From Candidatus Omnitrophota bacterium (GTDB lineage: Bacteria; Omnitrophota; Gorgyraeia; Zapsychrales; JANLHA01), in NCBI GenBank assembly GCA_020632555.1, contig JACKFI010000001.1:133152-197151 (forward strand): a stretch of 64,000 nucleotides of DNA, written 5' to 3'. Below are positions 10,463 to 59,216 of the stretch, piece by piece; position 1 is the first letter of the stretch; every line of letters starts with the position of its first letter. Below the pieces are notes generated by a model. That model was not told where the DNA came from. It saw nothing but the letters and a program-made list of their open reading frames with translations, and searched no databases. A program made the position numbers and the translations under genes.

Positions 10463-11209
10463 TCAACGAATATTTTTGTAAAATTTTGCTAATCGCTGTG
10501 TGGACACACCTAAAATAAAACCCCAACTGAGTAAAATATTCATTAAGGTTGTTTTAACAATGCCTCGCTTTTCCCAACGCCGCGGCAAAACAGTGGCTGA
10601 TGAATCGAGAACAATGGTTTTACCTAACTGACGCAACTGTCGAGAGAAAAGCACATCTTCAAACAAAGGCACATTATCAAACCCACCGATTTGCTCAAAA
10701 ATATCTCGGCGGACAAAGATGGCTTGATCTCCATAAAAGATCTTAAATAATTCCGCACGCAAATTCCCAGACGATTCTATCCAACGATAAATCCATTTTC
10801 CAGAGTCAATCTTATGGGTAAAGCAACCGCCAACATAATTTAATAAAACTTGTTTAGCGATAATTCTCAATCCCTCCGCAGCGATGACACAGTCGGCATG
10901 TAAAAAAAGCAAAACATCTCCCTTTGCTGCACAAGCTCCCGCGTTCATTTGCACAGCTCTGCCGCGCGGGGATGTGATAACCTTCACTGAATACTGACCA
11001 ACAATATCCCTAGTCCTATCATTGCTATGACCGTCGACAACAATAACCTCAAGATCCGAAGCATAAGGCAGAGCCTTTAATGTTCTTTCAATCGCGGCCT
11101 CTTCGTTATAAACCGGAATAATAATAGAAATCACTGCAAAGTTCCCTGACAACTGGATCCTGTTCCCGCGGTGCAACCAAAACAATGATTGGCGGTCAAC
11201 ACCTGCCAA
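10463..11209 (-). CDS. GT2 glycosyltransferase (TIGR04283-like partner of the radical SAM protein)
   Basis: 248 aa; GT-A start ISIIIPVYNEE...VIVVDGHSNDRT. A GTG at 11132-11134 overlapping the upstream TGA as GTGA is an alternative, more likely start. Confidence 0.6.
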   Translation of the reverse strand: MAGVDRQSLFWLHRGNRIQLSGNFAVISIIIPVYNEEAAIERTLKALPYASDLEVIVVDGHSNDRTRDIVGQYSVKVITSPRGRAVQMNAGACAAKGDVLLFLHADCVIAAEGLRIIAKQVLLNYVGGCFTHKIDSGKWIYRWIESSGNLRAELFKIFYGDQAIFVRRDIFEQIGGFDNVPLFEDVLFSRQLRQLGKTIVLDSSATVLPRRWEKRGIVKTTLMNILLSWGFILGVSTQRLAKFYKNIR

Positions 11210-19470: not shown

Positions 19471-19525
19471 ATTTCTCCTTTTGGTTTTAAAATCATTCTT
19501 AATTTATTGATCGTTCTCTTTATCA

Positions 19526-20754: not shown

Positions 20755-20777
20755 AGATAACTCTCCTTATCAGCTGA

Positions 20778-26909: not shown

Positions 26910-26918
26910 TGTGCCAAG

Positions 26919-28452: not shown

Positions 28453-28568
28453 GTCTTCTGCCTCCTACTTACCTCAAGTATAAAGAGTTTTCTCTAAGAA
28501 TGCAACAATATTAATTTAAAATTCATGCAAATAAAGTGGAAGGACGCACCCAAGATGCTGATATAAAT

Positions 28569-29918
28569 CTAATTGTGATGATTAGCCATCATCCAATCAA
28601 GCACCCCTTTAACACGACGCCAGACAGTAGCCATCTCATGGGCATAATACCGAGCCTCATCCTCTCCGCCCATAGATAAATAATCAGGAATCGCCTTCAA
28701 ACGGAAACCTTTGACAAGATAATTAGGAATAAATTTATTTGTTTTAAAAGCGCGCGCCATCATTTCCCTTGATTGCAACGAATCACCTTCTTTAATAAAC
28801 CACACCAACGCCCTCGTGTAGCACCATGGCGCGGAGCAATCATTCGCATACGGCCCATCCTCCATGAATTGTTCAAGTTCCGCAAATTTCGATCTCTTTG
28901 CCAGATAGCCTGCAAGAACATAGCGCATTCCCTGATTGTCATTCTCATTCAAACACAGCATATCGCGACACACCTCAATCGCTTCGGCATGCTTACCAAG
29001 CTCCCATAAAATTTCCTGAAGTCCAGCCAAAGCGCGCATATACGGCCTTGATTCCAGCAAAGCCCAAAATTGTCCGGCATTCTCTATAAAAAATTTTTGC
29101 CCTAATGCTTCTTTGCCAACCCTAACCCCTTGTAAAAAGTAGGTTGCGGCTTCGTCAAGATACTCTGCTGAATCACCTAAAACAACGTAGGCATCCGTGC
29201 AATTCGGATCAAGATTTAAAGCTTTTTGAGCCAAACCAACACGCTCATCAGAATCAGCCCGCTCCCATGCTTCATAAATCAACTCTTGAGCGATACGTGC
29301 AGGCGACGCATCTGCGAGCTCAGAGGCGGCTTCACCCAATTCTCTTCTTAAGTAAGTCTTCAAATCTTCCTCTTTTGGAATACCCCAAAGAATATTTCTA
29401 AGATCTGGTGGGACCTTGTAACCGTAAAGTGCCGAAAACGTCTCGATCGGAAACCCGTATTTCAGCGCTCCCATGGGCATGCCATTCAATTGAGCGGCTA
29501 CGACGGCCGCAGGATCCTCGTCCTTCTTAGCTTTACTCAGCCACCAGCGGGAATTTAAGACCATCTGGTTCATGGAGGCAAGCACACTGCGATCATTGGC
29601 TTTATCGACGACAATCTCGTCACAGCCTTGCAAAACTTTCTGCATCATTTCACTTGGACAATGCGTATGAAACATAGCACGCGAAAGCCCTTTGTAAAAA
29701 AGTTCACGAAGGTTTTTGAGATCCTTTTTCTTCACTCCCGCGACAAGGAAAGAAAACAGCGTCGATCGATGAGTAAAAAGCAGCTGCTTCTTGTGCTCAT
29801 GATAAAATAAATTCACGAACCATTCTGAAACAGATGGACTATCAGTGTTCAAAGATAAAGACTGAGGCTTGATACCGCTAAACAATAAAAACTTTTGTGT
29901 CCCACGTAAAAGAATCAT
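28569..29918 (-). CDS. Hypothetical protein with TPR-like helical C-terminal half
   Basis: 449 aa; no catalytic motif recognised; island cargo between the AbiE pair and repeat copy 2. Confidence 0.4.
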   Translation of the reverse strand: MILLRGTQKFLLFSGIKPQSLSLNTDSPSVSEWFVNLFYHEHKKQLLFTHRSTLFSFLVAGVKKKDLKNLRELFYKGLSRAMFHTHCPSEMMQKVLQGCDEIVVDKANDRSVLASMNQMVLNSRWWLSKAKKDEDPAAVVAAQLNGMPMGALKYGFPIETFSALYGYKVPPDLRNILWGIPKEEDLKTYLRRELGEAASELADASPARIAQELIYEAWERADSDERVGLAQKALNLDPNCTDAYVVLGDSAEYLDEAATYFLQGVRVGKEALGQKFFIENAGQFWALLESRPYMRALAGLQEILWELGKHAEAIEVCRDMLCLNENDNQGMRYVLAGYLAKRSKFAELEQFMEDGPYANDCSAPWCYTRALVWFIKEGDSLQSREMMARAFKTNKFIPNYLVKGFRLKAIPDYLSMGGEDEARYYAHEMATVWRRVKGVLDWMMANHHN

Positions 29919-29976
29919 TTTTTAATAACCTAACGTTGTTAAATCACCTACAAGCGCCCTCGTTTTGTCATACACT

Positions 29977-30012
29977 GCGTAATGGTCAATAAAAATGTGC
30001 CAGATTTGTGCC
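29977..30012 (+). repeat. Island direct-repeat motif, copy 2
   Basis: gcgtaatggtcaataaaaATGTGCCAGATTTGTGCC; ends 5 bp before the stop of the 141-aa ORF and 59 bp upstream of the 449-aa gene's start. Confidence 0.7.
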
Positions 30013-30017
30013 ACATG

Positions 30018-30443
30018 CTATATGAGTTTTTCCATTTTTTCTATAGCAGCATAGTAAATACTCAAAAACTTATCTTTTATTGTAAAAAGCTCGTCCATCA
30101 TTTTTTCAGAATGGGACTTATTCTCATATTCAAAAGGATAAAACCGAATACCCTTTTTATAAAATCCGCCTTCATAATTAATTTGAAAAAAATAATCTCG
30201 GTCAACAAGAGATCGATGCTTACTCAAGTTACAAAAACTCCTCACGTAGCCAAACTCATCTGAGTCAATCCATTCTCCTATAGCATTCTCTAAATCCGGA
30301 GCGATACCTTTCAATTGTTTACTCACTTTATAAATTGTAACTTTGCTTCGGGGCAGCGTAGAAGATAGGATTACCATATTGATTACCTGTGCGCAAATAT
30401 CAGGAGCCAAAGAGAATATTTCCAAACGTGCCATATTCAGCAC
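30018..30443 (-). CDS. Hypothetical protein
   Basis: 141 aa ORF 100 bp downstream of rtcA on the same strand; no motif. Confidence 0.3.
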   Translation of the reverse strand: MLNMARLEIFSLAPDICAQVINMVILSSTLPRSKVTIYKVSKQLKGIAPDLENAIGEWIDSDEFGYVRSFCNLSKHRSLVDRDYFFQINYEGGFYKKGIRFYPFEYENKSHSEKMMDELFTIKDKFLSIYYAAIEKMEKLI

Positions 30444-30546
30444 AAACCTGCCGAAGGACGAGCAAGTCCGCCAGAAGCAAATGAACCCGACACTCCTGGA
30501 AATGTTCTCTTTTACTCTCTTTTGAGTTTCTTTAGAATTTTATTTT

Positions 30547-45234: not shown

Positions 45235-45870
45235 TTATTGCGAGTTTTCTGCTTTAACTTCGGGCTTTTCTAAAATTGTGACGCGTCGGCCTTTGACTTT
45301 CAACCGCTGATCAGCCATCAAAACCACAGCTTGTGGATAAATTCGATGCTCGACACGATGGATTTTGGCTTCCAAAGTTTCTAAGGTGTCCTCTTCATTG
45401 ATCTTAACAGTATCCTGTAAAATAATCGGGCCATTGTCCATTTTTTCATTGACAAAATGCACAGTCACGCCGGTCTGCTTGACACCGTAAGTAAACGCGT
45501 CTTTAATGCCGTGAGCGCCTTTAAATGATGGCAGCAATGACGGGTGGACGTTAATAATTTTATTGGGGTACTCTTTGATAAAATACGGGGTCAATAAGCG
45601 CATATAACCGGCTAAAACAAGAAAATCAATTTTATGCTCTTTGAGCGCGATCACAATATCACGGTCAACACTTTGTCGATTGGTGTAATTGTCAGGAGAG
45701 AAGACCAGAGTTTTGATGCCAGCTTTTTCAGCACGCTTGAGACCAAAGGCTTTATCAGTGCTGGAAATGACCAAAGACAATTCAGCTTTGATCTCACCGT
45801 TTGCGACGCTATCAATAATCGCTTGCAAATTGCTGCCATTGCCTGAAATAAAAACCGCAAACTTTTGCAT
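45235..45870 (-). CDS. purN: Phosphoribosylglycinamide formyltransferase
   Basis: 211 aa; PurN motifs (AVFISGNGSNLQAI, NVHPSLLPSFKGAHG). Confidence 0.85.
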   Translation of the reverse strand: MQKFAVFISGNGSNLQAIIDSVANGEIKAELSLVISSTDKAFGLKRAEKAGIKTLVFSPDNYTNRQSVDRDIVIALKEHKIDFLVLAGYMRLLTPYFIKEYPNKIINVHPSLLPSFKGAHGIKDAFTYGVKQTGVTVHFVNEKMDNGPIILQDTVKINEEDTLETLEAKIHRVEHRIYPQAVVLMADQRLKVKGRRVTILEKPEVKAENSQ

Positions 45871-45974: not shown

Positions 45975-47996
45975 TTAAGGACGATGTTGAAGTTTTTTCT
46001 CGAGGGTTTGCAATTGCAGTTCAATTTTTTCAAAGGTCTGATCTTGTAAGCGCATTTGATTGTTCTGCTCTTTGAGCGCGCCGGTTAGAACCGCGGTAAT
46101 GCCCATCGGATCAACACTTCTGCGACCTTCTTCAGCGACGAACTCCGGAACATCTTCGGCAATAAACCCGACGTGATGTTCCTCATGATTGACTTTATAA
46201 TTATAAGTCACAGGCTGCAATTCTTTGACCACTTCTAAAGCTTGGCGGGTATCTAATGGATAGATATGCTCTTTATACTCGCGGCTGGATAAAGTCATCC
46301 ACGTTCCAACATCGTCCAAATGCGCATTATTACCAAAATGCAAAGGGTAGGCCGGATCAGGTCGTCCAACACCAATTCGACCATTATTTTTAACCATAAA
46401 AATATCTCCAGCGGTTGCGGAGTTCTGTGAAGTCACAGCAAAAAAATCGTCCCCATTATTAATTTTTATATCTAAAATCGCACTGGGCGCAGTGTTACGA
46501 ATACCGAATTTGGGATTATTGGTACTGGGCGCAATAATAAACGCATCCGAGGCTGAAATCGAAACAGCTGATATGGAATACCCCCACACAAAAGATCGAT
46601 TTGCGCTATTAATCAAATTCATATAACGTCCTCCTGCCCATGAATAATCGCCCAAAACCGTATTATTTCGACCATTGCTAATGACTGAATAATTTCCTGA
46701 AACATCATTATTCACACCACCAACAACTATTGAAGAACGTCCAGCCCTATTATTAGCCCCTCCCCAAATAACCGCATAATCCCCAGATGTCACATTTCCT
46801 GTTCCACCCATAATCGCCGACCAAGAGCCATTAACTGTATTGCTCCTGCCTCCATCAATCACTGAATACAAACCATTCGCGGTATTGGTCAATCCTCCCG
46901 CAATAAATGAATAACTCGCCAACGCATTATTTGATTGCCCCCCGCCGACCACAGCATAAGGACCAGCTGAATTTTGACAACCGCCACTGACCACAGAATA
47001 AATACCGGGATCGTGATGCAATGTGCCGCCGGAAATAGTAAAATAATCGGCCGCAACAGTTTTGGTCGGATCCGTTAAACAATTTGGAAAAACCCATTGC
47101 GCATTATTACTACTGCCGCCGGTGATCGTCGCACCGACTCCTGCCGCAACATTACAAGAACCACTAAAAACAACATTATAATCATTTCGTGTTTGGCTTG
47201 ATTCTCCACCGACAACAGAAGCTCTCCCCTGCACATCACTTCGCTCACCCCAATTGACAGCATACTGACTGAAAACATCTGTTTTTAAACCGCCCAAATT
47301 AGCTGAATAATCTCCGGAAGCTTTTGAATACCGTCCAAATGCAACTGCAGCTAACCCACTGGCCTTAATATTGTCTTTACCTAAAGCAATTGAATAATCG
47401 CCAATATTGCCATCATTCCAAGCATCGGAAAAATCTTCTTCCCCCCAAAAATGCGTTAAATGTCCAACACGAAAAGCCGCTTTACGAGGATACCAAATCA
47501 TTTGCACCGCCCCTTCAAAACTAGACTCAGCAATAGCAGGCAAGTCAGGCAAAAGTTGGCCACTGCCCAATTGCCCCATCGCTAAAATACCGCCATCATT
47601 TTCTAAAGTCAGCTTGAATTCCGGAACAGTCGTGCCAATACCCACAAAAATATTGGGATTGGTGACTATCGCAGTTGGAAAAACATCATTGCCCGACTGG
47701 GTCCAAGAGCTTTCCAACAATGTCCATTGTCCATTTCCACTGCCATCATCAAAACAATAATGCAATTGATCTGTCCCCTGCTTAACAGACAATGTCCCAA
47801 GCGCACAAGGGGTGGATAATACTTGCGGCAATAAAGTCACTCGATCATAAGCGCCTTGCGGTGCCGGATAATATGTCGTTAATGTAAGACTCTCAGCCAA
47901 CGCAGACAAAGAACTCAATACAATCAAAGCGACGCTGATCGCCCCAATTTGAATTGAGCGTAAAAAACCATCGTCTCTGTGCTGAGCCTTTTGCAT
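45975..47996 (-). CDS. Secreted fibre protein with C-terminal peptidase S74 intramolecular-chaperone domain (paralog 1)
   Basis: 673 aa; signal peptide; conserved N-terminal YYPAPQGAY...RVTLLP block; Gly/Asn/Ser-rich ~14-aa periodic middle; C-terminal SSREYKEHI...HVGFIAEDVPE auto-processing chaperone signature; terminal coiled coil. Confidence 0.7.
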   Translation of the reverse strand: MQKAQHRDDGFLRSIQIGAISVALIVLSSLSALAESLTLTTYYPAPQGAYDRVTLLPQVLSTPCALGTLSVKQGTDQLHYCFDDGSGNGQWTLLESSWTQSGNDVFPTAIVTNPNIFVGIGTTVPEFKLTLENDGGILAMGQLGSGQLLPDLPAIAESSFEGAVQMIWYPRKAAFRVGHLTHFWGEEDFSDAWNDGNIGDYSIALGKDNIKASGLAAVAFGRYSKASGDYSANLGGLKTDVFSQYAVNWGERSDVQGRASVVGGESSQTRNDYNVVFSGSCNVAAGVGATITGGSSNNAQWVFPNCLTDPTKTVAADYFTISGGTLHHDPGIYSVVSGGCQNSAGPYAVVGGGQSNNALASYSFIAGGLTNTANGLYSVIDGGRSNTVNGSWSAIMGGTGNVTSGDYAVIWGGANNRAGRSSIVVGGVNNDVSGNYSVISNGRNNTVLGDYSWAGGRYMNLINSANRSFVWGYSISAVSISASDAFIIAPSTNNPKFGIRNTAPSAILDIKINNGDDFFAVTSQNSATAGDIFMVKNNGRIGVGRPDPAYPLHFGNNAHLDDVGTWMTLSSREYKEHIYPLDTRQALEVVKELQPVTYNYKVNHEEHHVGFIAEDVPEFVAEEGRRSVDPMGITAVLTGALKEQNNQMRLQDQTFEKIELQLQTLEKKLQHRP

Positions 47997-48011
47997 ATTT
48001 TTATCCCTGTC

Positions 48012-50006
48012 TTATTTCTCTAACCTTGTCCGCAATACTTTAATTCTTTCTTCAATCAGCTGAATCTTGTGTTCCCGTTGTTCAATTTCAGATTGTTGAT
48101 TTTGAACAACCTTGGTTAAAACGGCAACAATATCCATTGTGCTCAAAGTTTTGCGGTCTTTAACCGCAACTAAACTCGGAACATCTTCGGCAATAAATCC
48201 AATATTCGTATGATCAGGATCATTTTTATATTCAAATGTAACCGGATTTAATTGCTCAAAAGCTTGCTGGGCATCTGCTCCTGTCAGCGGAATAATATTT
48301 TCTTTAAGCTTGCGGCTAGATCCATTTTCCCAGGATCCTCCAGAACTCACATAAGCCCCATTGCCAAACTCCATTGCATAAGTAGGATTTGTTGGCATTA
48401 TTTTTTGGCTGCCAATATAACCATTTCTTTTCACAATAAAAACATCCCCAGAAGTTATTTTTCCCAAAGCCAAGAAATTATCAGCAGTTCCGTTGGCATT
48501 AACTTCTAAAACACCAACCGGATTAGTATCCCTGATCCCAACTCTGGGATTCCAAACAACTCCGCCAATCGTTCCCGGCGCAATAATAAATGCATCCGGC
48601 ACAACAATAGAAACCGCTGTATCAGAATATCCCCACGCAAAAGTTCGCTGCGCGGTACTTGTCAAATTCATAAAACGTCCCCCAGCCCAAGAATAATCGC
48701 CATCTACTATATTGTCCGTCCCACCCATGATCGTAGAATACCCGCCGTAAGCTCTGTTTCGCTCACCCCCCGCGATCACAGAATAATTATAGCTAGCATC
48801 ATTTTGCCACCCACCACCTATAATCTGGCCGAAACCTCCGCGAATCACATTCGTGCGTCCACTAGAAATAAACGAATACCTATTACCAGTTAAAATGGAA
48901 TTGCTGTCCCCACCGGAAATTCGCACATATTCACCAGCTGGACTAAACACAGAAACGTATTCACCGGTTTTATTCGCCAAGCCACCGCCAATGCTTGAAT
49001 AAGGTCCCTCAACAATATTGCCCTCACCCCCCAAAACAATAGAATAATCAGATCTGACTTTATTGTCCTTACCCCCACCAATCAGCGAATACCCCGTCGG
49101 AACACCAAAATCAGTAAAATCAATTAAATTATTAAAACCACCATTGATGTTTGAATATGGAATTGTGACACGATTTTGTGCCCCGCCGGCAACAACACTA
49201 TAAATCGCAGTGGCCTGATTATCTAAACCCCCAAGAATCGCAGAAAAATCTCCGGAAACCACATTGTTTTCTCCACCCCAAAGTGCCGCATATCGACCAC
49301 TGGCCATATTGTCCTTGCCACCGCCAACCGCTGAAAAATCCGCACTGGCCGTGTTCCTAAATCCACTGCCAACCACAGAATATAATGCACTGGCAATATT
49401 TCCATCGCCGCCGCCGATAGCTGAATAATGTCCACTGGCCCTTGTATTCTTTCCAAAAGCCGTGGAATAATTGCCGATATTCCCATTGTCCCATTGAGCC
49501 CCATCAACATAACCGGCGCGAATCGCGGCTTTACGCGGATACCAAATAAACCGGCTGCCCGCTCCTAAATTCGGCAAGGTCGCGCCACTGCCAAATGTCC
49601 CCTTAGCCATAATCCCGCCATCTTTTATTAAAGTCAGTTTTGAATCCGGCGTGTTGGTCCCAATCCCAACACGCAATAAAGGATTGCTCAAAGTATCTTT
49701 CAAATAAATATCATCATTCGTTTGCATCCAAACATCACTAAGCGCTTCCCACGCACCATTACCGCTGCCATCATTGTGACAATACTGAAGACTCCCCAAA
49801 GAATTCACATACAAAGATCCAATCGGACAAGCCGCAGTCAAGTCTGCGCGTGGCAGTAAACGAAAAGTGTCATATTCCCCTACCAATGAAGGATAATAAA
49901 TATCCATTTTCATTTCTGGGCTCGCCTGCGCAACGGGGACAAACACAAATCCCGTACAAATGAGGAGAAGAATTAGGAAAAGTTTTTTTGAATTATTTAT
50001 CATCAT
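48012..50006 (-). CDS. Secreted fibre protein with C-terminal peptidase S74 domain (paralog 2)
   Basis: 664 aa; same architecture (YYPSLVGEY..., SSRKLKENI...NIGFIAEDVPS). Confidence 0.7.
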   Translation of the reverse strand: MMINNSKKLFLILLLICTGFVFVPVAQASPEMKMDIYYPSLVGEYDTFRLLPRADLTAACPIGSLYVNSLGSLQYCHNDGSGNGAWEALSDVWMQTNDDIYLKDTLSNPLLRVGIGTNTPDSKLTLIKDGGIMAKGTFGSGATLPNLGAGSRFIWYPRKAAIRAGYVDGAQWDNGNIGNYSTAFGKNTRASGHYSAIGGGDGNIASALYSVVGSGFRNTASADFSAVGGGKDNMASGRYAALWGGENNVVSGDFSAILGGLDNQATAIYSVVAGGAQNRVTIPYSNINGGFNNLIDFTDFGVPTGYSLIGGGKDNKVRSDYSIVLGGEGNIVEGPYSSIGGGLANKTGEYVSVFSPAGEYVRISGGDSNSILTGNRYSFISSGRTNVIRGGFGQIIGGGWQNDASYNYSVIAGGERNRAYGGYSTIMGGTDNIVDGDYSWAGGRFMNLTSTAQRTFAWGYSDTAVSIVVPDAFIIAPGTIGGVVWNPRVGIRDTNPVGVLEVNANGTADNFLALGKITSGDVFIVKRNGYIGSQKIMPTNPTYAMEFGNGAYVSSGGSWENGSSRKLKENIIPLTGADAQQAFEQLNPVTFEYKNDPDHTNIGFIAEDVPSLVAVKDRKTLSTMDIVAVLTKVVQNQQSEIEQREHKIQLIEERIKVLRTRLEK

Positions 50007-50008
50007 AT

Positions 50009-51943
50009 TTACTCAAAGTGCCTGTTTAATTGCTCTAGCTCATTTAATAAATCTTCACTTTTTTGCTTCTGTTGCTCAATTTTCTCTTGTTGATAAGCAA
50101 CAACCTTGGTTAAAACCGCAGCAATATCCATTGGGGCTAATCCTTGGCGTTGTTTTTGAACAACCAAAGCAGGAACATCTTCGGCAATAAAACCAACATA
50201 TTCTTCATCTTTTTGTAATTTATAATTAAACCGTACCGGATTTAAACCACGCAATGTTTCTAAAGCTTGATCCAGGTCCAAAGCCGTAATATTTTCTTTA
50301 TATTCACGACTTGATGAAGGCATGAATTTACCACTGGCATCAACATAGGCACCGTTACCAAAATCCATAATGTATTGCGGATTACTCTTATTAACCCCAA
50401 TGCAACCATTGCAACTGCCGCCTTTCTTGATGGTAAAAATATCACCCACAACAGAACTAGAGTTGCTGGTAAAGTTTAAATAATCATCCGCAGAATTATT
50501 GCCATTAATTTCCAACCCAGCGGCAGGAGTTATATCGCGAATACCCATTCTGCCAGAATAAATGATAAAAGCATTGGCTGTCGAAATATCTGCAGGCGCT
50601 GCAGAATATCCCCACAAAAAAGTATTATTAGCCCCAGTGGTCAATCTCATATTTCGACCAGCAACAAATGAATATGGGCCAACAATAGAATTATCAGCCC
50701 CACCGGCAATCATCGAACAATCAGAAGCCGCCTCAACCCTATTGAGCTTACCCCCCATAACCGTTGCATAAGGACTCAAAACGCCATTGTCTTCTCCTGC
50801 GCCAATCACAGAATAATCCTGACTCACAGTATTTCTATGCCCACCACCGACGACCGAATAAAGACCCTGAACAAGATTATCACTGCCGCCGGCAATAACC
50901 GAATACTGTCCAGAAATAACATTTGACTTCCCACCGGAATTAACAGAATATGAAGCGCTGGACGAATTTAAATGCCCCCCCGCAATAACAGTCCGATCCG
51001 TTACATTGACAAAGGTGTTGGCCCGACCGCCGCTAATGACCCCATAACTGCTAACCTGACTTGGCGAAAAAGAATTATCCCCACCACCTGAAATTATTTG
51101 ATAATCATAATAAGTCTTATTATTGTTCCCACCCGCAATAATTCTAAAACGAGAATAATTATCCGACCCGCGCGGGTGAGAATTATCTCTCCCTCCGCCG
51201 ATATCAGACCACACGTCCCCCGCACTATTATTAAAACCGGCTAGTCCTCCCTCCCAACAATCATCACGGCAAACATTGTTTTCTCCACCAAGAATAATTC
51301 CGCCCTTAGCTGCATTCGATTTACCTCCTAAAATCATTCCCCATCTGGCATCGTTATTCTCGCCACCTAAAACAAACATCCCTCTGCTGCCATATCCCAT
51401 AACTACACTGCCTGGATCAATATTCCCAACATCCCATTCATTCCCGGCAGCATACCCGGAACGAAAAGCTTTTTTCGATGGAATCCACATCAAGCGCGTA
51501 CCGGCTCCCGCAGTAACTAAGGCTGTCCCACTGGCCCAACTGGGCGTAAACCATCGCGATAAAATTCCACCATCACCGGCGAGCGTTAACTTAAACTGCG
51601 GCATCATTGTTCCAATCCCAACTTTTTTAGCTGCTGGATTCGTCGTATCGGCAAGATGGAGATTGTCTCCTGTCAATACCCACGTACCAGAGACAAGCAC
51701 GTATTTAGAAAACGGAGTGTCCTTAACACAATAATAAAGTCTGCCTAGGTCTGTCGCATTGGCATACAATGTACCAACAGGACAATTTGTATTTGGAGTA
51801 ATAGCTGGCTGAGGATTTAATCTGAGTTTGCTGTAATTTCCCGTTGGAGCAGGATAGTAGGACGTCATTTCCAAACCGCTGCAAGCTGCACAGGCGATAA
51901 ACGCGAACGAAAAAAACAAATATGCTGAAAATATTCTTCGCAT
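50009..51943 (-). CDS. Secreted fibre protein with C-terminal peptidase S74 domain (paralog 3)
   Basis: 644 aa; same architecture (YYPAPTGNY..., SSREYKENI...YVGFIAEDVPA). Confidence 0.7.
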   Translation of the reverse strand: MRRIFSAYLFFSFAFIACAACSGLEMTSYYPAPTGNYSKLRLNPQPAITPNTNCPVGTLYANATDLGRLYYCVKDTPFSKYVLVSGTWVLTGDNLHLADTTNPAAKKVGIGTMMPQFKLTLAGDGGILSRWFTPSWASGTALVTAGAGTRLMWIPSKKAFRSGYAAGNEWDVGNIDPGSVVMGYGSRGMFVLGGENNDARWGMILGGKSNAAKGGIILGGENNVCRDDCWEGGLAGFNNSAGDVWSDIGGGRDNSHPRGSDNYSRFRIIAGGNNNKTYYDYQIISGGGDNSFSPSQVSSYGVISGGRANTFVNVTDRTVIAGGHLNSSSASYSVNSGGKSNVISGQYSVIAGGSDNLVQGLYSVVGGGHRNTVSQDYSVIGAGEDNGVLSPYATVMGGKLNRVEAASDCSMIAGGADNSIVGPYSFVAGRNMRLTTGANNTFLWGYSAAPADISTANAFIIYSGRMGIRDITPAAGLEINGNNSADDYLNFTSNSSSVVGDIFTIKKGGSCNGCIGVNKSNPQYIMDFGNGAYVDASGKFMPSSSREYKENITALDLDQALETLRGLNPVRFNYKLQKDEEYVGFIAEDVPALVVQKQRQGLAPMDIAAVLTKVVAYQQEKIEQQKQKSEDLLNELEQLNRHFE

Positions 51944-52033: not shown

Positions 52034-53317
52034 TCAAGAATGCATCTTTTCAGTCAAAAAGGCAAGATCGCCGCCGTGGCGATAACGAATCATACCGGCA
52101 ATGCCTACAATGGTAAAAATCGCGCCCACCGAAACCAAAATCCAAAACGCGTCAATACGTTCAGCTAGCCATGAACTGATCAACATGGAGGTCAAAAACG
52201 CAAAATGAATAACGATTTCCAACGCGCTAAAAACTTTTCCTCGCATCGCCTCATCACTGGCCACATGAACAATCGTATTAGACGCGATAAAAATCGGACC
52301 AATCACAATACCCAATAAAAACGCCAGAATCCCAGCCAAAAAAACACTTGGGTATTGCTGGACGGTCGTCGCGAAAACAATAACCATCGCTCCGCCAGCC
52401 ATCAAGCTCAAAAAAATCGTACGCGACCACAAAACTTTTTTGCCCCAACGCCCATAAAGCAAAGCGCCAATAAAGAGCCCCACACCTAAGCAAACAGCCA
52501 AAACACCCAAGTCCCGCGTGACCGTGTTAAAAGCTTTTTGAATAAAAACGATAATGACTACATAAATAGCACCAGCTGCGGACAAAAGAATAAAAAACAT
52601 ATTCATCACGAAACGAATCTGACGCTGGCTAAACAAATACTGCAAGCCTTCTTTGATTTCTGAAAAAAAAGATTTCTCAATCGCAAGAAATTCCTTGCCC
52701 TTATCAATGATTTGTTTTTTACTCAATTCGACATGAAACTTAGCACCCATTGATCCAATTAATAACGCTGAAAAAAAGTATGTTGCTCCATCACCAAAAA
52801 AACCTGCTTTCACGCCAACTTTATCAACCAAAAAACCACCTAATGCACAACCCAAGACAAAAGCCAACATACCTGTGGTCGTCAAAAGCGAATTGGCCAT
52901 CAAAATATTTTCGGCGGGAACAAGTTCAGGAACAATAGACATTTTAGCGGGCACATAAAAACGGCTAAAACAAAAAATCAGAAAAACAATAATATAAATT
53001 TCGATCATGGATTGTTTATACAAAAAGAAAAAAGGAATGATCAAAACCAGAAGTCCACGAACCAAATCACATACAAATAATGTCTTGCGTTTGTCCCAAC
53101 GATCCACATAAACGCCGGCAATAGGCCCGACGATAAAAACGGGAATAATCGTAAACGACAACAGTTTGGCCAAGCTGTAAGCTGAACCAGGTTCACGCTG
53201 GGCAATCAAACCAATCAAGGCCATTTGATTTAAGCGATCTCCAAACTGCGAAATCAGCTGTGCCCACCACAGACGCATAAACTGCTTATTTTTTTTATCA
53301 AAAATAAAACGCAACAT
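52034..53317 (-). CDS. MFS transporter
   Basis: 427 aa; 12 TM; MFS N-terminal signature (AQLISQFGDRLNQMAL...VDRWDKRK). Confidence 0.75.
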   Translation of the reverse strand: MLRFIFDKKNKQFMRLWWAQLISQFGDRLNQMALIGLIAQREPGSAYSLAKLLSFTIIPVFIVGPIAGVYVDRWDKRKTLFVCDLVRGLLVLIIPFFFLYKQSMIEIYIIVFLIFCFSRFYVPAKMSIVPELVPAENILMANSLLTTTGMLAFVLGCALGGFLVDKVGVKAGFFGDGATYFFSALLIGSMGAKFHVELSKKQIIDKGKEFLAIEKSFFSEIKEGLQYLFSQRQIRFVMNMFFILLSAAGAIYVVIIVFIQKAFNTVTRDLGVLAVCLGVGLFIGALLYGRWGKKVLWSRTIFLSLMAGGAMVIVFATTVQQYPSVFLAGILAFLLGIVIGPIFIASNTIVHVASDEAMRGKVFSALEIVIHFAFLTSMLISSWLAERIDAFWILVSVGAIFTIVGIAGMIRYRHGGDLAFLTEKMHS

Positions 53318-53320
53318 AAT

Positions 53321-55126
53321 TTAAAGCTTCTCAATACGCCGGGCCATATCGGCCAAATGCATAGTCGCCAGACGATCCAATTCATCAGGACCGGACTTGA
53401 GCAACAAAACACGCTCATAAAACGCGATCGCTTTTTCCCGTTGCCCCAGCATTTGATACGTTGAAGCGAGGTTAAATAAAGCTTCTTTCAAATTTCCATC
53501 TAATGAAATTGCTTTTTCGTAATACTCAATGGCCCGCCGGGGATCAGATAATTTCGAATACAAAATCCCCAAACTATGGTAACCGCGCGCATTATCGGGT
53601 TTTTCTCTCATCAAACGTTCATAATGTGAAACCAAAAACAATTCCGTAGACTTGATATTATCGTCAAGCAAGTTCTTCAAATCGCCCGGATCGGTAATCT
53701 TATCATATTCGCGCAAACCTTCCCAAAACTTACCTTGATCACATAAGGATTTACCCAAACCAATGCGCGCCCGGATATTAAAAGGTTCAACATCCAAAAC
53801 TTTTCGAAAATTATGTTCAGCCAGATCAAACCGATTGCGCTTAGCATAAGATAAAGCCAAAGAATTGCGAATACGCGTATTGGTCGGATTAATGGACAAA
53901 GTGCGCTCGAACATTGCGATTTCATTGCTGGAATAAATGTTGTATTGAATCGTTAAAAGAATCAAAAATAAAGAAAACCCTATCACACCAGAGCGAATCA
54001 TGAAAGGAGAAATCAATTTACGGCGCGCACAGGCTTTTTTGTAATGCTCAAAGAGCACCATGGCTAAAACAAAAATACCAATGCTGGGCACATATAAAAA
54101 ATGCTCCGCTGTTGAAATATAGCCCGGCTGGACTCCCACTGTTGTAATAATCTGAGAAACAGGTAAAAGTTCAATAAAAAACCAGCTCACACAAAAAGCT
54201 TGCAACCCTGTGATTTTCTCGCGCTTAATCCAAGCCATCGCCATTAAGGCCAAGAAAAATAGCACAGTCAGAATCACCTGAGTGTCCATGAAACTAATAA
54301 AAATCGGCTGAGAACGATCAAAATAAAGATCAACCGGAAAAATGAAAAGGCGCAAATCGATGATCACACTTTTTAAAAATGTCAAAAAACCCAAAACCAT
54401 TTCACTCGCCGATCGCCACGGAAAAGTTCTCGTAATGCCTAAAATATGGCGTATCCCCAAATAAACTCCGGCGACAGCAGCGTAAGGAACAAGGCCAACG
54501 AAAAGTTTTTTAAAATGAAAGCTTTGTTTTTCCTTAATAAAATAAGAATAACTTAAAAACACCAATGGAAGAATACCCGCGGATTCTTTGCACAGCAGCG
54601 CCAAAGCAAACGCGATCAGTGAAAAATACGAATAATATTTCCGGCGGTCGGAATAAATAAAAAAATAAAATGACGCCAGCCCATAAAAAGCGCACAAAAG
54701 AATAGAACGCCCGGGAATATTAGACACCGCCTCCCATTGAATCGGATGCAAAGCAAACAAAAATGCCGCTCCCAAGGCCATGGCTCGTCGATCTGTCAAA
54801 GCAAAAACAATCGCAAAAACCCAGAAAGCGTTGAGAATATGAATAAGAATATTGTCTACATAATACGGAACGGGATCGAGTTTAAAAAAATGGTATTCCT
54901 TCATAAAACTCAGCGTAACCAATGGCCGATAATAAGCCTCCCCACTAAAAAAAGCGCTGGTCATCACTTTGGGAATATTACGAAAACTGCGAACATCTTC
55001 ATTGCGGACAATTGAATAATCATCATCCAGCGTCTTAAAAGCGCCATTAATGCTAAACGAATAGACAAAACATGTCATAAACGCCAACAAAATCAACCCA
55101 ACAAGTGTTTTACGTTTTTCAATCAT
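53321..55126 (-). CDS. TMTC-like GT-C membrane glycosyltransferase with C-terminal TPR repeats
   Basis: 601 aa; first-loop acidic motif LDDDYSIVRNEDV; YYRPL and FALHPIQWEAV blocks as in TMTC/DUF1736 proteins; about 11 TM; C-terminal TPR repeats. Confidence 0.6.
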   Translation of the reverse strand: MIEKRKTLVGLILLAFMTCFVYSFSINGAFKTLDDDYSIVRNEDVRSFRNIPKVMTSAFFSGEAYYRPLVTLSFMKEYHFFKLDPVPYYVDNILIHILNAFWVFAIVFALTDRRAMALGAAFLFALHPIQWEAVSNIPGRSILLCAFYGLASFYFFIYSDRRKYYSYFSLIAFALALLCKESAGILPLVFLSYSYFIKEKQSFHFKKLFVGLVPYAAVAGVYLGIRHILGITRTFPWRSASEMVLGFLTFLKSVIIDLRLFIFPVDLYFDRSQPIFISFMDTQVILTVLFFLALMAMAWIKREKITGLQAFCVSWFFIELLPVSQIITTVGVQPGYISTAEHFLYVPSIGIFVLAMVLFEHYKKACARRKLISPFMIRSGVIGFSLFLILLTIQYNIYSSNEIAMFERTLSINPTNTRIRNSLALSYAKRNRFDLAEHNFRKVLDVEPFNIRARIGLGKSLCDQGKFWEGLREYDKITDPGDLKNLLDDNIKSTELFLVSHYERLMREKPDNARGYHSLGILYSKLSDPRRAIEYYEKAISLDGNLKEALFNLASTYQMLGQREKAIAFYERVLLLKSGPDELDRLATMHLADMARRIEKL

Positions 55127-56927
55127 TTTTTTTCTCTGCCTGGTTAAGGTAATTTTCTACCGCTTTTAAATTCATATCCCCATCAAACTTTTCTTGAGCT
55201 TTTGCCAATACCGTCCGCGCTTGCGGCAAATCACCGGCCTCAATGTTAATATGTATCACAAAAACATAAGCCAGTACCGATTGAGAATCAACTGCCATGG
55301 CCTGCAAAGCACAATCTTTTGCCGACACATAATCTTTTTTAATCAAATAATTCCTCGAAAGCTCCAAATACAATCCCGAAAAACCGGGAGCCAACTCAAT
55401 GGCTTTCTTCAAATAACCAATCGCGGCGTCGGGAGTAGCAGCCGCTTTACTTAGAAGATGATAAGTCATAAATTTTTCTTTGTCACTGGAAATAAACGGA
55501 TTATTCATCGCGACTTTAAGATGTTGTGTAAGATATTTAACCGCCTGCGGCGAATGACCTGCCAAATAACTATCCAAGCCTAAAATCCAATACGGGCGAG
55601 AACTATCCGGATACCGGCGAATCATTTCGCGGCAAGCCACAAAATTATTTCTAAAGAAATCATTATTGGCAATGGTTAAAATAATCAAAAACCCTGTCCA
55701 AACTCCTGGCAATATCAATCTCATGTTCAACGTAATATGTCGTCGAGTAAACCACTGCGCAAGATGGTCTATACCAATCGCAAATAACAAAAAAAATCCA
55801 ATCGACGGCAAATACAAGAAACGAAATGCTAAAGGATTAAGCAAAGGAAAGATCCCAGAAGCCGGGAAATAATTGACAAAAAACCACACAAACCCAAAAG
55901 TAATAATTTTATCGCGTCGAAAAAAATTAACGGCTAAAATTATGGACAATAAGCTAACAACCAACGGCACCATCAATTCCCAAATCGGCATTGGAAAAAT
56001 TGGCGGGGCATACAAGGGAGGAAGAACAGAAACTTTAAACGGCAAAACCAGCGCCACGCAGTACTGTAAGAAAAGTTTAAGCATCAAGACAATTTGCGCT
56101 AAACCTTTTAAAGCATAAGGCGAAGGCTGTAAATAAAATACATTAGGAATTAAAATGAAGTACACACATAAATAAAAGATCGTGATTCCAGCCAAAACCG
56201 CGTAAAGCCCCTTCTTTTGACCAAGAATCTGTCGACCCTTTTGCGCTGAAAGAAAGAACCAGTCGACAATAAAAATAATAAATGGAAAAGTTACTGCTGT
56301 TTCTTTTGAAAACAAAGCCAAAAAATATGACACTCCGACAAGACCAAACCAGAGGCCTTTTCTTTTAGCCTCACTAAAGCGCGCATAAGCTAAAACCGCG
56401 CACAAATAAAACATCGTCATCAAAATATCCGAACGATACCCGCTGGCATTGACAACTTCCGACTGAATTGGATGGACTGCGAAAAAACTTGCCGCCCAAA
56501 AAGCTATTTTTTTATTGCCGGAAATCCGCAGGATAAAATAAAAAACCAAAATGCAGGTCAAAAAATGAAGAAATATATTACTAAAATGATGCCCCGTCGG
56601 ATTGTTCTTCCATAAAGCGTAATCTATAAAAAAGGTCGCAGCGCTAACCGGACGATAAGAAACGCACCCGGAAAAAGATTGAGTCTTTTGTGAAGCATCA
56701 TAAGTCGACGGATTCATGACCAAATCTTGTGAGAAAATCTTTGGGAAATTGGTCAGACTTTTATAAAATTCATTGCCGCTAAAAAGAGCCTTGTCGTCGC
56801 CAACAAAGTCATTTTGCAAACAATTGTGAAAAGCGGCTGCAACAAAAAGCGCTAAAAGAAAAATAATTAATCGATTGGTGAAGGGAATTTTTGTGAAGGA
56901 AAAATTTTTCAAGGCACGAAGAATCAA
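55119..56927 (-). CDS. TMTC-like GT-C membrane glycosyltransferase with C-terminal TPR repeats (paralog)
   Basis: 602 aa; FVGDDKALFSGNEF, YRPV and FAVHPIQSEVV blocks; polytopic; C-terminal TPR; 8-bp overlap with the downstream paralog. Confidence 0.6.
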   Translation of the reverse strand: MILRALKNFSFTKIPFTNRLIIFLLALFVAAAFHNCLQNDFVGDDKALFSGNEFYKSLTNFPKIFSQDLVMNPSTYDASQKTQSFSGCVSYRPVSAATFFIDYALWKNNPTGHHFSNIFLHFLTCILVFYFILRISGNKKIAFWAASFFAVHPIQSEVVNASGYRSDILMTMFYLCAVLAYARFSEAKRKGLWFGLVGVSYFLALFSKETAVTFPFIIFIVDWFFLSAQKGRQILGQKKGLYAVLAGITIFYLCVYFILIPNVFYLQPSPYALKGLAQIVLMLKLFLQYCVALVLPFKVSVLPPLYAPPIFPMPIWELMVPLVVSLLSIILAVNFFRRDKIITFGFVWFFVNYFPASGIFPLLNPLAFRFLYLPSIGFFLLFAIGIDHLAQWFTRRHITLNMRLILPGVWTGFLIILTIANNDFFRNNFVACREMIRRYPDSSRPYWILGLDSYLAGHSPQAVKYLTQHLKVAMNNPFISSDKEKFMTYHLLSKAAATPDAAIGYLKKAIELAPGFSGLYLELSRNYLIKKDYVSAKDCALQAMAVDSQSVLAYVFVIHINIEAGDLPQARTVLAKAQEKFDGDMNLKAVENYLNQAEKKND

Positions 56928-56942: not shown

Positions 56943-57015
56943 CAAAAAACAAGCTGGCGGTCAGGGTTGAACTGACGGCCTGCGCATTACGAATGCGCTG
57001 CTCTACCGACTGAGC
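56943..57015 (-). tRNA. tRNA-Thr (anticodon CGT)
   Basis: Reverse complement GCTGGCGTAGCTCAGTCGGTAGAGCAGCGCATTCGTAATGCGCAGGCCGTCAGTTCAACCCTGACCGCCAGC+T; perfect 7-bp acceptor stem; anticodon loop TTCGTAA; CCA not encoded. Confidence 0.85.
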
Positions 57016-57495
57016 TACGCCAGCGAATTACCTTAAAATAATCAAAACAAACCTTAAGAAAAATTCGCCAGTACTGTTTTCCTTATATCTTTTTACAGAA
57101 AAAACAGTGCGCCAGCAAACTTCCACTAAACTTACAAAATTTACCCTTAGAACAGTTTGCCAGTACTGCCTTCTACTTTTACTATCTTGAGAAGGCATGT
57201 ACGCCAGCGAATTACCTTAAAATCATCAAAACAACCTTAAGAAAAATTTGCCAGTACTGTTTTCCTTATATCTTTTTACAGAAAAAACAGTGCGCCAGCA
57301 AACTTCCACTAAACTTACAAAATTTACCCTTAGAACAGTTTGCCAGTACTGCCTTCTACTTTTACTATCTTGAGAAGGCATGTACGCCAGCGAATTACCT
57401 TAAAATCATCAAAACAAACCTTAAGAAAAATTTACCAGTACTGTTTTCCTTATATCTTTTTACAGAAAAAACAGTGCGCCAGCATTTACATCAAA
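57009..57495. repeat. Tandem repeat array (~190-bp units made of two ~95-bp sub-units, about 2.6 copies) starting inside the tRNA-Thr 5' end
   Basis: cgccagcgaattaccttaaaat... recurs at 57009, 57202 and 57385; each sub-unit carries an inverted repeat (ACTGTTTT..AAAACAGT or TGCCTTCT..AGAAGGCA) and the palindrome CAGTACTG. Confidence 0.8.
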
Positions 57496-57496
57496 T

Positions 57497-57650
57497 TTTT
57501 CGCGGGAAACCGGGACATCACCCACCGAACAACATTGCACCAAACTAAAAAAAAAGAATGGTGCCGAGACTAAGGGATTGTTGTGGGAAACCGGGATTTC
57601 ACCCACCGAACAACAAAGCACCAAACTAAAAAAAAGAATGGTGCCGAGAC
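57497..57650. repeat. Tandem ~80-bp repeat duplicating the tRNA-Phe 3' end
   Basis: gggaaaccggga(c/t)(a/t)tcacccaccgaacaaca(t/a)(t/a)gcaccaaactaaaaaaa(a)gaatggtgccgagac occurs at about 57505-57570 and 57585-57650; the second copy is fused to the tRNA-Phe 3' terminus. Confidence 0.75.
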
Positions 57651-57714
57651 CCGGAATTGAACCGGGGACGCACGGCTTTTCAGGCCGTCGCTCTACCGAC
57701 TGAGCTATCTCGGC
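57639..57714 (-). tRNA. tRNA-Phe (anticodon GAA)
   Basis: Reverse complement GCCGAGATAGCTCAGTCGGTAGAGCGACGGCCTGAAAAGCCGTGCGTCCCCGGTTCAATTCCGGGTCTCGGCACCA; CCA is encoded. Confidence 0.9.
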
Positions 57715-57973: not shown

Positions 57974-58375
57974 CTACGGATGCGACCGTTGAACAATCTT
58001 GGTATAAATATCCTGAGCTAATTTAATTCTTGGCATCATGCCCCGACGAGCTTTGACTCGTAGTTTTACAGTATCTGCGACCGGTTCAGCCACTGTCACC
58101 GTAATATGAGCCCCAGAAACCTTAGCAACAACCACTCCGGCAATTTCATTCTTCTCTTCAATCAGCCCCATAATGGATACTGTATCAACCGCGGCCTGCC
58201 AAATATCCTGCATGGTATATCCACTGACCATGCCCTCAACCGTGTCTGGACTAATCGCATAACCGCCCAAAGCCCCGACGCCGCCAATTACCAAATAAAA
58301 ACAGCCACTGCCGGTCAATAAAAATAAAACCAACGCTATCGAAAAAAAACTTTTCTTAACAGAAAACCTTTCCAC
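57974..58375 (-). CDS. Hypothetical lipoprotein
   Basis: 133 aa; signal peptide with LTGSGC lipobox-like sequence. Confidence 0.35.
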   Translation of the reverse strand: MERFSVKKSFFSIALVLFLLTGSGCFYLVIGGVGALGGYAISPDTVEGMVSGYTMQDIWQAAVDTVSIMGLIEEKNEIAGVVVAKVSGAHITVTVAEPVADTVKLRVKARRGMMPRIKLAQDIYTKIVQRSHP

Positions 58376-58562: not shown

Positions 58563-59216
58563 TCAAAGCAAAAATTTTCTCACCTGATAAACATTCTCAA
58601 CTACGGCCAAAGGCTTTAAAGCTGTTAATTCTGCAATTGTACTGGAACCTGTTGCTACCGCTACGGTTTTAACTCTCGCCCGCCGGCCGGTCAAAACATC
58701 AATCCCCATATCTCCCACATAGAGAGCTTGAGACGGCTTGAGCTTAAACTTCTTTAAAATCGCCTTAAGAATATCCGCCGCCGGCTTAGGACGCGCCACC
58801 TTATCCCCACATAAAACATAATCGAAGAAAATATTGATTTTTAAATACCTTATCGCAATCAGCGAAAACTTAGTCGGGCGATTGCTGGCCACTGCGATTC
58901 TTAATCCTTGCGCCTGCAAATATTGTAGAATTTTCAACGCGCCCGGCAATAGCTTGGTATCTTTGCGCAAAGCTAAAGCATGATGCTGTCGATAAACACT
59001 CAGCGCTCGGTCAATATCTTTGTCTCCGATTTTGTCCCCCAGAAAAGACTGCAACAAATGCCGGTCACCCCAACCCACTGTGCGTTTAATCGTCGAGTGC
59101 GCAATTGGGGCAAAACCAAATTTATCGACGGTATAATTGACACTGCGATAAACCGCCGGATAAGCGTTCATCAAAGTCCCATCAAGATCAAAAACAACAA
59201 GTTTGATTTTTTTCAT
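58563..59216 (-). CDS. HAD-superfamily hydrolase (phosphoglycolate phosphatase-like)
   Basis: 217 aa; motif I VVFDLDGTL and the other HAD motifs. Confidence 0.7.
   Translation of the reverse strand: MKKIKLVVFDLDGTLMNAYPAVYRSVNYTVDKFGFAPIAHSTIKRTVGWGDRHLLQSFLGDKIGDKDIDRALSVYRQHHALALRKDTKLLPGALKILQYLQAQGLRIAVASNRPTKFSLIAIRYLKINIFFDYVLCGDKVARPKPAADILKAILKKFKLKPSQALYVGDMGIDVLTGRRARVKTVAVATGSSTIAELTALKPLAVVENVYQVRKFLL

Follow-up and report, generated by a model that had tools for sequence, protein, structure and literature searches.

What do two tandem membrane glycosyltransferases modify when their genes lie beside those of conspicuous surface proteins? The question is raised by a locus of a Candidatus Omnitrophota bacterium (GenBank assembly GCA_020632555.1), analyzed here within a 64,000-nucleotide (nt) stretch of contig JACKFI010000001.1 (positions 133,152 to 197,151 of the forward strand), which we call the window and whose own numbering is used below. 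Two adjacent genes, A and B, encode proteins with a membrane domain and a C-terminal tetratricopeptide repeat (TPR) array. They are followed by a gene for a transporter of the major facilitator superfamily (MFS) and by three genes for fibre-like paralogs, and a gene for a 1224-amino-acid (aa) tandem-repeat protein lies further upstream. A preliminary description of the locus had read A, B, and the transporter as a candidate TMTC-like O-glycosylation system that could act on the fibres or the repeat protein. In our analysis, the membrane domains of A and B are GT-C domains of the PMT/ArnT/STT3 kind with a TMTC-like architecture, not domains of the Wzy_C type. B and the MFS gene form an operon that is conserved across Omnitrophota, and the fibre genes and the 1224-aa gene are lineage-specific insertions into this phylum-conserved gene order.

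Sequence, topology, and fold of A and B

The coordinates (Table 1) place A and B side by side on one strand, upstream of the MFS gene and the three fibre genes, just as the preliminary description had it. Its view of the pair as paralogs of about 600 residues is likewise confirmed by BLASTP, in which the 602-aa A and the 601-aa B align over 422 aa, the whole membrane domain, with 29% identity (E 5e-31). They are the only GT-C/TPR copies in the window. The reading frames leave almost no intergenic space: at the ATG of B, the frames of A and B overlap by 8 nt (ATGATTGA), and 3 nt separate the stop codon of B from the ATG of the MFS gene. The true start of A is possibly about 5 codons downstream of the one given here, the identical database protein P0121 being 597 aa long. 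Homologues number 314 for A, mostly from Omnitrophota, and 470 for B, and nearly all of them come from Omnitrophota metagenome-assembled genomes (MAGs).

The DD, YRP, and HPIQ blocks quoted earlier are present, and they are invariant or nearly so in both orthologue families. B contains LDDDYSIVRNEDV, YYRPL, and FALHPIQWEAV, and A contains VGDDKALFSGNEF, SYRPV, and FAVHPIQSEVV. In the B-family alignment, D34 and D35 are both invariant, and the invariant or near-invariant set further includes Y66, R67, P68, H127, P128, K180, and E181. The corresponding set of the A family (38 sequences) comprises G43, D44, Y91, R92, P93, H152, P153, E157, K208, and E209, together with R165, R369, and Y372; D44 is invariant, and D45 is at least 90% conserved.

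AlphaFold2 (AF2) models of full-length A (pLDDT 90.6, pTM 0.88) and of residues 1-400 of B (pLDDT 87, pTM 0.90) contain 11 transmembrane (TM) helices each. In this count, the hydrophobic helix between TM7 and TM8 is taken to be juxtamembrane and periplasmic, following ArnT and the TMTC models (PMC7801869). When the long motif-bearing loops (DD, YRP, loop 4, and loop 5) are set outside, the short inside loops are rich in lysine and arginine; the B loop that carries the DD motif (residues 26-84) is outside in this topology model. Because the long motif loops point outward, the TPR array is placed in the periplasm, and the models are consistent with an N-terminus in the cytoplasm and a periplasmic TPR array. 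The TPRs of B are strongly matched by Pfam (TPR_1, E 1e-21). Those of A give weak Pfam matches, and the model has 12 helices over residues 428-601 with TM-scores of 0.81-0.87 to consensus TPR proteins. The AF2 helices, with Pfam for the repeats of B and Foldseek for those of A, bear out the roughly 11 TM helices and C-terminal TPR arrays described before.

Foldseek comparison of the B model (residues 1-400) with the PDB returned STT3, AglB, ArnT, PglB, DPY19, PMT, ALG3, and EmbB as the top 26 matches. STT3 (E 6e-5), AglB, and PglB rank above ArnT (5ezm, E 5e-3); Pmt1/2/4 are also among the matches, with an E value of 0.1 for PMT, and there is no WaaL or PglL-type ligase among them. The full-length A model matches TPR proteins and PglB, and single-sequence PDB searches with A and B retrieved TPR proteins only. 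Neither A, B, nor any of 18 relatives has a Pfam match to Wzy_C, even at E ≤1. The preliminary description had set a robust classification as Wzy_C or O-antigen ligase against its own assignment. With no Wzy_C signal in Pfam or among the structural matches, the proteins do not fall into that class.

Family links beyond the fold come from relatives and profiles. Among the 18 relatives, Pfam at E ≤1 matches PMT_2 in eight (best E 3.7e-8), TMTC_DUF1736 in three (best E 4.9e-4), and PMT in one, and many B homologues carry a precomputed PF13231 (PMT_2) match. Three distant matches of A (P0197, P0204, and P0212; E 1e-27 to 1e-29) pass the Pfam gathering scores for both TMTC_DUF1736 (29-30 bits) and PMT, and P0204 and P0212 additionally pass PMT_2. 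In hhalign, the B-family profile aligns with a profile of the DUF1736-positive relatives over 358 columns (probability 100%, E 5e-54). This alignment pairs PVDLYFDRS with P(I/V)TL(N/S)ADYSYN in loop 4, and LLPVSQ...AEHFLY with LLPVSQIIPHHE.MAE(H/R)YLY in loop 5.

TMTC enzymes are described by seven motifs, M1-M7 (DD, SHKSYRP, RxD, KE(T/Q)xxT, DW, PxxP, and ERxxY), and the human proteins match the DUF1736 model at E < 1e-30 (PMC7801869). The match to this set is partial in each paralog. The DD pair (M1), YRP, HP..E, and KE(S/T) do not vary in the A family or in the B family. A also has RSD (= RxD), an exact KETxxT (KETAVT), and the Arg and Tyr of ERxxY (FRFLY, xRxxY), whereas its loop 4 (PPLYAPP) has no acidic residue. 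B has the acidic loop 4 PVDLYFDRS and keeps E..xxY (AEHFLY, EHxxY), with His at the phosphate-binding Arg position of ERxxY, RSI without the Asp of RxD, and KESAGI. A is a clade-specific second paralog whose active-site loop differences are complementary to those of B. Of the earlier label "TMTC-like", the superfamily assignment stands, on the fold, the motifs, and the hhalign result; both proteins probably work like TMTC or TfpW-type enzymes. The Pfam DUF1736 model, however, leaves them outside the TMTC family in the strict sense.

Conservation of the B-MFS operon

A scan of one genome per GTDB species gave 80 loci, 61 of them with a B orthologue (tblastn, 37-76% identity). In 51 of the 53 loci whose sequence reaches far enough downstream, the next gene after B is the MFS gene, and this adjacency persists as the identity of B drops to 37%; PurN follows the MFS gene in 47 loci. 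The median gap between B and the MFS gene is about 24 nt, and 4-nt overlaps are frequent. In 15 of 50 loci, B is directly preceded by an A-type paralog. Upstream of B, p133 is found in 32 of the 61 loci and the HAD gene in 21, and in at least 19 loci the conserved neighborhood on this side includes an LpxL-like Lip_A_acyltrans gene. The conserved order is LpxL-like, p61, HAD, p133, tRNA-Phe, tRNA-Thr, (A), B, MFS, PurN. The upstream tRNA pair is part of it, with tRNA-Thr in the same position in L001, L002, L006, L008, and L009. Three orthologous contigs, with B identities of 91%, 74%, and 66%, all keep A, B, MFS, and PurN in this order, and L001 and L002, which reach further upstream, keep HAD and p133 too. 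B and the MFS gene thus form an operon that extends across the phylum, so that they most likely constitute a housekeeping envelope module rather than a cassette dedicated to the fibres.

Relatives of A and B also occur in tandem GT-C/TPR arrays of up to nine genes in a row (L065, L081, L083, L070, and L074). Arrays of up to this size are found in one Omnitrophota genome and in Gemmatimonadetes genomes, and smaller ones in Patescibacteria and Clostridia MAGs; none of them has an MFS gene alongside.

The transporter matches Pfam MFS_1 and MFS_3. Among NCBIfam models it matches PRK08633, the MFS domain of LplT-Aas (E 1.7e-30, 105 bits against a cut-off of 1221), and LplT itself (NF008397; E 7e-15, 55 bits), where it falls short of the equivalog cut-off of 297. 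At E ≤1e-30, 270 relatives were found among 1.8 billion representative proteins. The longer proteins within the top 150 include P0457, with a PlsC-type domain, and P0460, with a Lip_A_acyltrans (lipid A late-acyltransferase) domain (E 1e-41 to 1e-42); no fusion to a GT-C domain was seen among them. Searches against PDB sequences, with the protein alone and with a 28-sequence profile, returned nothing. The acyltransferase fusions suggest that this MFS subfamily is linked to membrane-lipid handling and that the transporter may move lipids. Such a link fits a flippase for a lipid-linked sugar donor or for the spent carrier, and it fits equally well a role with other envelope lipids.

Fibre and repeat-protein genes as inserted neighbors

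Comparison of the window with L003, in which B is 91% identical, delimits the fibre block. By blastn, L003 1-4970 corresponds to window 57006-52034, and L003 5070-5749 corresponds to window 45870-45192; the interval between MFS and PurN holds a 6.16-kb fibre block in the window versus a 99-nt spacer in L003. No fibre-like gene lies between MFS and PurN in L001-L003. Neither a fibre homologue nor a 1224-aa homologue is present within 10 kb in the 61 B-orthologue loci, nor anywhere in the 83 loci L001-L083. The intergenic DNA flanking the block, compared with the L003 spacer, shows no target-site duplication or recognizable junction. In three other Omnitrophota genomes, triplets or sextets of fibre homologues lie between the ACP-SMC and FabV genes, and their surroundings contain no homologue of A, B, or the MFS transporter. 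The 1224-aa gene sits between p61 and HAD, where it is an insertion relative to L002 and L006, and because the LpxL-like gene is conserved upstream, it represents a second insertion. Since the fibre block is inserted into the B-MFS-PurN order, its adjacency to A and B carries little functional weight. The proposal that A and B glycosylate these neighbors is therefore not supported by synteny.

The N-terminus of each fibre paralog resembles a signal peptide. The three proteins share a conserved YYP.P.G.Y motif and glycine-rich beta-helix-like repeats, and they end in a Peptidase_S74 domain, an intramolecular chaperone. The block has a promoter-like site of its own in a 90-nt spacer. In Omnitrophota, the family always occurs as ordered triplets or sextets (including those of L084-L086), and the fibres may accordingly be heterotrimeric or built from three parts. 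A tblastn search of 50,697 phage records with fibre 1 returned nothing and so gives no evidence for a prophage origin. The 1224-aa protein is predicted to be secreted. It consists of helical units of about 52 aa, encoded by 156- and 159-nt tandem DNA repeats that are 93-98% identical, and ends in an FG-GAP-like region with weak NCBIfam matches to the Leptospira LIC_10421 family.

A 781-aa protein with a multi-TM N-terminal domain (loop-1 motif KDLDLWLH) and C-terminal TPRs is encoded at 18547-20892 of L084, and likewise in L085 and L086, within a few genes of the fibre sextets; its gene adjoins an NTP_transferase gene. It was considered as support for a fibre glycosyltransferase and set aside, as its first 549 residues have no Pfam match and the protein does not resemble A or B. 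Possibly it represents a further uncharacterized membrane/TPR enzyme.

Proposed mechanism and alternative explanations

Our analysis allows a mechanism to be proposed for the conserved genes. A and B would face the periplasm and take sugar from a polyprenyl-phosphate-sugar donor at the periplasmic side of the inner membrane. The donor phosphate would be held by the conserved K-E pair of loop 3 and by the R or H of loop 5, and the sugar would be handed to an acceptor that the TPR domain recruits; Ser/Thr residues of periplasmic or surface proteins are the most probable acceptors. The transporter would move lipid across the inner membrane, carrying either the lipid-linked donor outward or the spent polyprenyl-phosphate inward, and would fill the role that GtrA or ArnE/F flippases have in three-component systems. 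A, translationally coupled to B, could use a different donor or acceptor or form a heteromer with B. Taken as a whole, with periplasm-facing enzymes, lipid-linked donors, TPR-recruited protein acceptors, a B-MFS housekeeping module, and a clade-specific A, we hold the chances of this reading to be about even.

Several results weigh against it. The functions assigned to these GT-C/TPR proteins derive from sequences and structural models. PMT_2 (PF13231) matches B with 21.6-22.7 bits, below the gathering score of 26.1, and does not match A; TMTC_DUF1736 (PF08409) reaches only E 0.65 and 10.4 bits on B (residues 236-294), against a gathering score of 27, and has no match in A. A profile of 18 membrane domains retrieved nothing from PDB sequences at E ≤10. 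Neither a polyprenyl-phosphate-sugar synthase nor a GtrA/SMR-type flippase was found in the window or among the called genes of L001-L003. One candidate synthase, the GT2 gene at 10463..11209, was rejected: it is of the arsenosugar type (TIGR04283), lies 42 kb away, and stands beside radical-SAM and DUF2064 partners. TPR domains also occur in polysaccharide export scaffolds, and the array is no proof of a protein acceptor. As for the transporter, its best NCBIfam match is TIGR00900, a DHA3 drug:H+ antiporter model (E 1e-58, 199.5 bits against a cut-off of 319.6). PurN is linked as tightly as the MFS gene, so that adjacency alone does not prove a shared function. The tandem GT-C/TPR arrays outside Omnitrophota have no MFS gene alongside, which argues that such enzymes have no intrinsic need for one.

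The last three points lend themselves to a reading in which the transporter is an ordinary DHA3-type efflux or H+ antiport protein, co-transcribed in a housekeeping operon but not functionally coupled to B, just as the functionally unrelated PurN is (median MFS-PurN gap 39 nt, many overlaps). The persistence of the B-MFS pair in 51 of 53 species, down to 37% identity of B and with frequent start-stop overlaps, and the fusion of MFS relatives to lipid enzymes, not to drug-resistance modules, speak for coupling, and we consider an uncoupled transporter somewhat improbable. The main rival, which we rate as slightly less probable still, changes the acceptor: A and B would act in an ArnT-like manner on lipid A, lipopolysaccharide (LPS) core, another glycolipid, or a cell-wall glycan, with the LplT-like transporter handling the lipid substrate or product and the TPR array docking to envelope-assembly machinery. 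ArnT is indeed among the structural matches of B, and ArnT-like enzymes fall within the Pfam family PMT_2. The kinship of the transporter with LplT and LplT-Aas, the acyltransferase fusions of its relatives, the LpxL-like gene upstream, and the phylum-wide housekeeping context would all suit a core function in envelope lipids or glycans. However, protein glycosyltransferases rank highest among the structural matches, Pfam beyond PMT_2 points to families of protein O-mannosyltransferases (PMT and TMTC_DUF1736), and the enzymes of this architecture that have been studied experimentally, TMTC1-4 and TfpW, modify proteins. GT-C enzymes that modify lipid A or core are not known to have TPR arrays. 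Protein O-glycosylation is favored over a lipid or LPS acceptor.

Very improbable, in our judgment, is the arrangement put forward at first, in which A, B, and the transporter are dedicated to O-glycosylation of the adjacent fibres or of the 1224-aa protein, comparable to tfpW beside pilA. The genes are adjacent and on the same strand, TfpW is encoded directly beside its pilin substrate, and the signal-peptide-like N-termini of the fibres would bring them to a periplasmic enzyme. Against this stand the absence of fibre and repeat-protein homologues from the surroundings of all 61 B orthologues, the 99-nt spacer of L003, the equally inserted position of the 1224-aa gene, the fibre loci elsewhere that lack A, B, and MFS, and the separate promoter-like site of the block. 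Lastly, our proposal of a protein-modifying B-MFS module can be extended to its boldest form. B-MFS would then be a hitherto undescribed two-gene extracytoplasmic glycosylation module universal to Omnitrophota, in which the LplT-like transporter serves as flippase or recycler of the polyprenyl-phosphate(-sugar) carrier for a TMTC-like protein O-glycosyltransferase, and A and B form a Pmt1/Pmt2-like heteromer wherever A is present. This extension is unlikely; if true, bacteria would have their own equivalent of the TMTC pathway, and the transporter would stand for a new class of flippases for lipid carriers.

Other features of the window

The genes of the region are collected in Table 1. No Pfam or NCBIfam match was found for p133. 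PurN was considered as an ArnA-type sugar formyltransferase and ruled out, as it passes the PurN equivalog model.

Table 1. Features in the 45-64 kb part of the window, in which all genes are on the minus strand, listed in the order of transcription
Feature	Window coordinates	Strand	Remarks
LpxL-like lipid A acyltransferase, C-terminal part	64000..63605	-	Lip_A_acyltrans; at window edge
p61, small gene		-	between LpxL-like gene and 1224-aa gene
1224-aa tandem-repeat protein	63051..59377	-
HAD phosphatase	59216..58563	-
p133, predicted lipoprotein	58375..57974	-	133 aa; lipobox-like LTGSGC in sequence
tRNA-Phe	57639-57714	-	ARAGORN, Rfam
tRNA-Thr (CGT)	56952..57024	-	ARAGORN, Rfam; directly upstream of A
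A, GT-C/TPR paralog	56927..55119	-	602 aa, TTG start; 11-TM GT-C domain ~1-425, TPR array 428-601
Codons of A D44-D45	56793..56798	-	putative catalytic DD motif, first periplasmic loop
B, GT-C/TPR paralog	55126..53321	-	601 aa; 11-TM GT-C domain 1-399, TPR array ~400-601
Codons of B D34-D35	55022..55027	-	putative catalytic DD motif, first periplasmic loop
MFS transporter	53317..52034	-	427 aa; DHA3/LplT-like subfamily; conserved operon partner of B
Three fibre paralogs	51943..45975	-	644, 664, and 673 aa; each with C-terminal Peptidase_S74 (Pfam)
PurN	45870..45235	-	TIGR00639, 244 bits against a cut-off of 150

The 614-nt spacer between tRNA-Phe and tRNA-Thr contains a 183-nt tandem repeat (2.6 copies, 98% identity; 57016-57484). 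It further contains an 81-nt duplication (57504-57668), with an exact 23-nt repeat, that takes in the 3' end of tRNA-Phe. The distance between the tRNA genes is 17-22 nt in some relatives, and others carry 4-6 kb of cargo (ParE, Fic, and HTH) between them. From its variable length and its repeats, the spacer looks like an integration hotspot with a scar.

Elsewhere in the window, a cluster of mobile and defense-type genes occupies 25557-38471. It comprises an IS256/Mutator-family transposase (37347-38471), a HEPN/nucleotidyltransferase pair (35977-37015), an RtcR-RtcB-Band7-RtcA RNA-repair group (30547-35842), an AbiEii toxin (26919-27866), and a Fic/DUF4172 gene (25557-26690). Genes of a lipid-related group at 18904-23847 encode an HMG-CoA reductase (21946-23214), a free-standing protein homologous to the C-terminal lysyl-phosphatidylglycerol synthase domain of MprF (20778-21773), a DUF1295/steroid-reductase-like membrane protein, a lipocalin, and a chalcone-isomerase-like protein. 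An arsenosugar-type biosynthesis trio at 10463-12685 (the TIGR04283 GT2, a radical-SAM protein with DUF3641, and DUF2064) adjoins genes for a pyridine-nucleotide disulfide oxidoreductase and a VTT/DedA-domain protein (8344-9021). An alpha-glucan cluster of the GlgE pathway lies at 314-7635, with GlgB-like, TreS-maltokinase fusion-like (1107 aa), and GlgE-like proteins.

Relation to known glycosylation systems

A and B are divergent additions to an enzyme kind that is already known, and their classification is sound but expected. The phylum-wide B-MFS(-PurN) operon and the conserved A-B tandem with its complementary loop motifs seem to be undescribed so far, and a role of the transporter as a carrier-lipid flippase would be the remaining novelty. 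Our literature searches found no characterized bacterial TMTC-like enzyme besides TfpW and nothing on the B-MFS(-PurN) operon or the A-B tandem; a further lead, the cyanobacterial Ogt, proved to be a GT41 enzyme and irrelevant. Bacterial GT-C/TPR enzymes are abundant and almost none is characterized, TfpW being the one case found. A B orthologue with its MFS gene, conserved across a phylum, is a concrete target for heterologous work on glycosylation substrates. The pair also bears on the movement of lipid carriers, a matter of question in many GT-C systems. The locus further illustrates how adjacency to conspicuous surface proteins can mislead: each of the two proposed substrates is encoded by a recent insertion in an otherwise conserved gene order.

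Eukaryotic TMTC1-4 are protein O-mannosyltransferases that act on folded, beta-rich domains. Like A and B, they combine 11 TM helices and a GT-C fold with an extracytoplasmic C-terminal TPR array, and they share with them the loop-1 DD, (S)YRP, (F)A(V/L)HPI..E, and loop-3 KE(T/S), as well as RxD and xRxxY with A and E.xxY with B. Compared by way of the published motifs and the Pfam model, A and B differ from them in lacking the SHK part of M2 and in having fewer TPRs at about 600 aa. In addition, B has H for the phosphate-binding R of ERxxY, and A lacks the acidic DW-type residue of loop 4. The TMTC donor is dolichyl-phosphate-mannose (Dol-P-Man), whereas a bacterial polyprenyl-phosphate-sugar would serve A and B, and the MFS partner of B has no TMTC counterpart. 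Prokaryotic TMTC homologues have been noted before (PMC7801869), and some relatives of A and B are labeled "protein O-mannosyl-transferase" by JGI.

The 646-aa Pseudomonas aeruginosa enzyme TfpW, in which 11 TM helices are combined with a DDX motif and with TPRs in the periplasm, is required for pilin O-glycosylation from a lipid-linked Araf donor; tfpW is consistently next to pilA and near genes for Araf-donor biosynthesis and GtrA-like genes (bioRxiv 10.1101/2020.04.19.049825). By its published description, it resembles A and B in being an inner-membrane protein with a cytoplasmic N-terminus, 11 predicted TM helices, a first-loop DDX, and a large periplasmic TPR region. Its closest template is ArnT, which is also a structural match of B. 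At the Omnitrophota locus, by contrast, the fibre neighbors are not conserved, no donor genes lie close by, and the partner kept through evolution is an MFS gene; no conserved pilin neighbor of A or B was seen in the orthologous loci examined.

Three-component systems are well established (PMC11127046, PMC7389260), in which a GT2 polyprenyl-phosphate-sugar synthase, a GtrA or ArnE/F flippase, and a GT-C transferase act together (Gtr, Arn, and CsbB/GtcA/YfhO). They resemble B-MFS in having a periplasm-facing GT-C enzyme and an adjacent transporter gene whose product could supply or recycle the lipid carrier. Here, however, the GT2 is not in the locus, and the candidate flippase is a 12-TM MFS protein rather than a small GtrA/SMR-type protein. 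The systems named modify glycans or lipids, and to our knowledge none of them has a TPR domain. Finally, the PMT/POMT (GT39) and ArnT (GT83) enzymes share with A and B the GT-C fold, the acidic pair of loop 1, PMT_2 and PMT matches (sub-threshold or in relatives), and a place among the structural matches. A and B have no MIR domain and carry a TPR array instead, and the B model is closer to STT3 (E 6e-5) than to PMT (E 0.1) in Foldseek. The tandem, translationally coupled arrangement of the two paralogs recalls the Pmt1-Pmt2 heterodimer.

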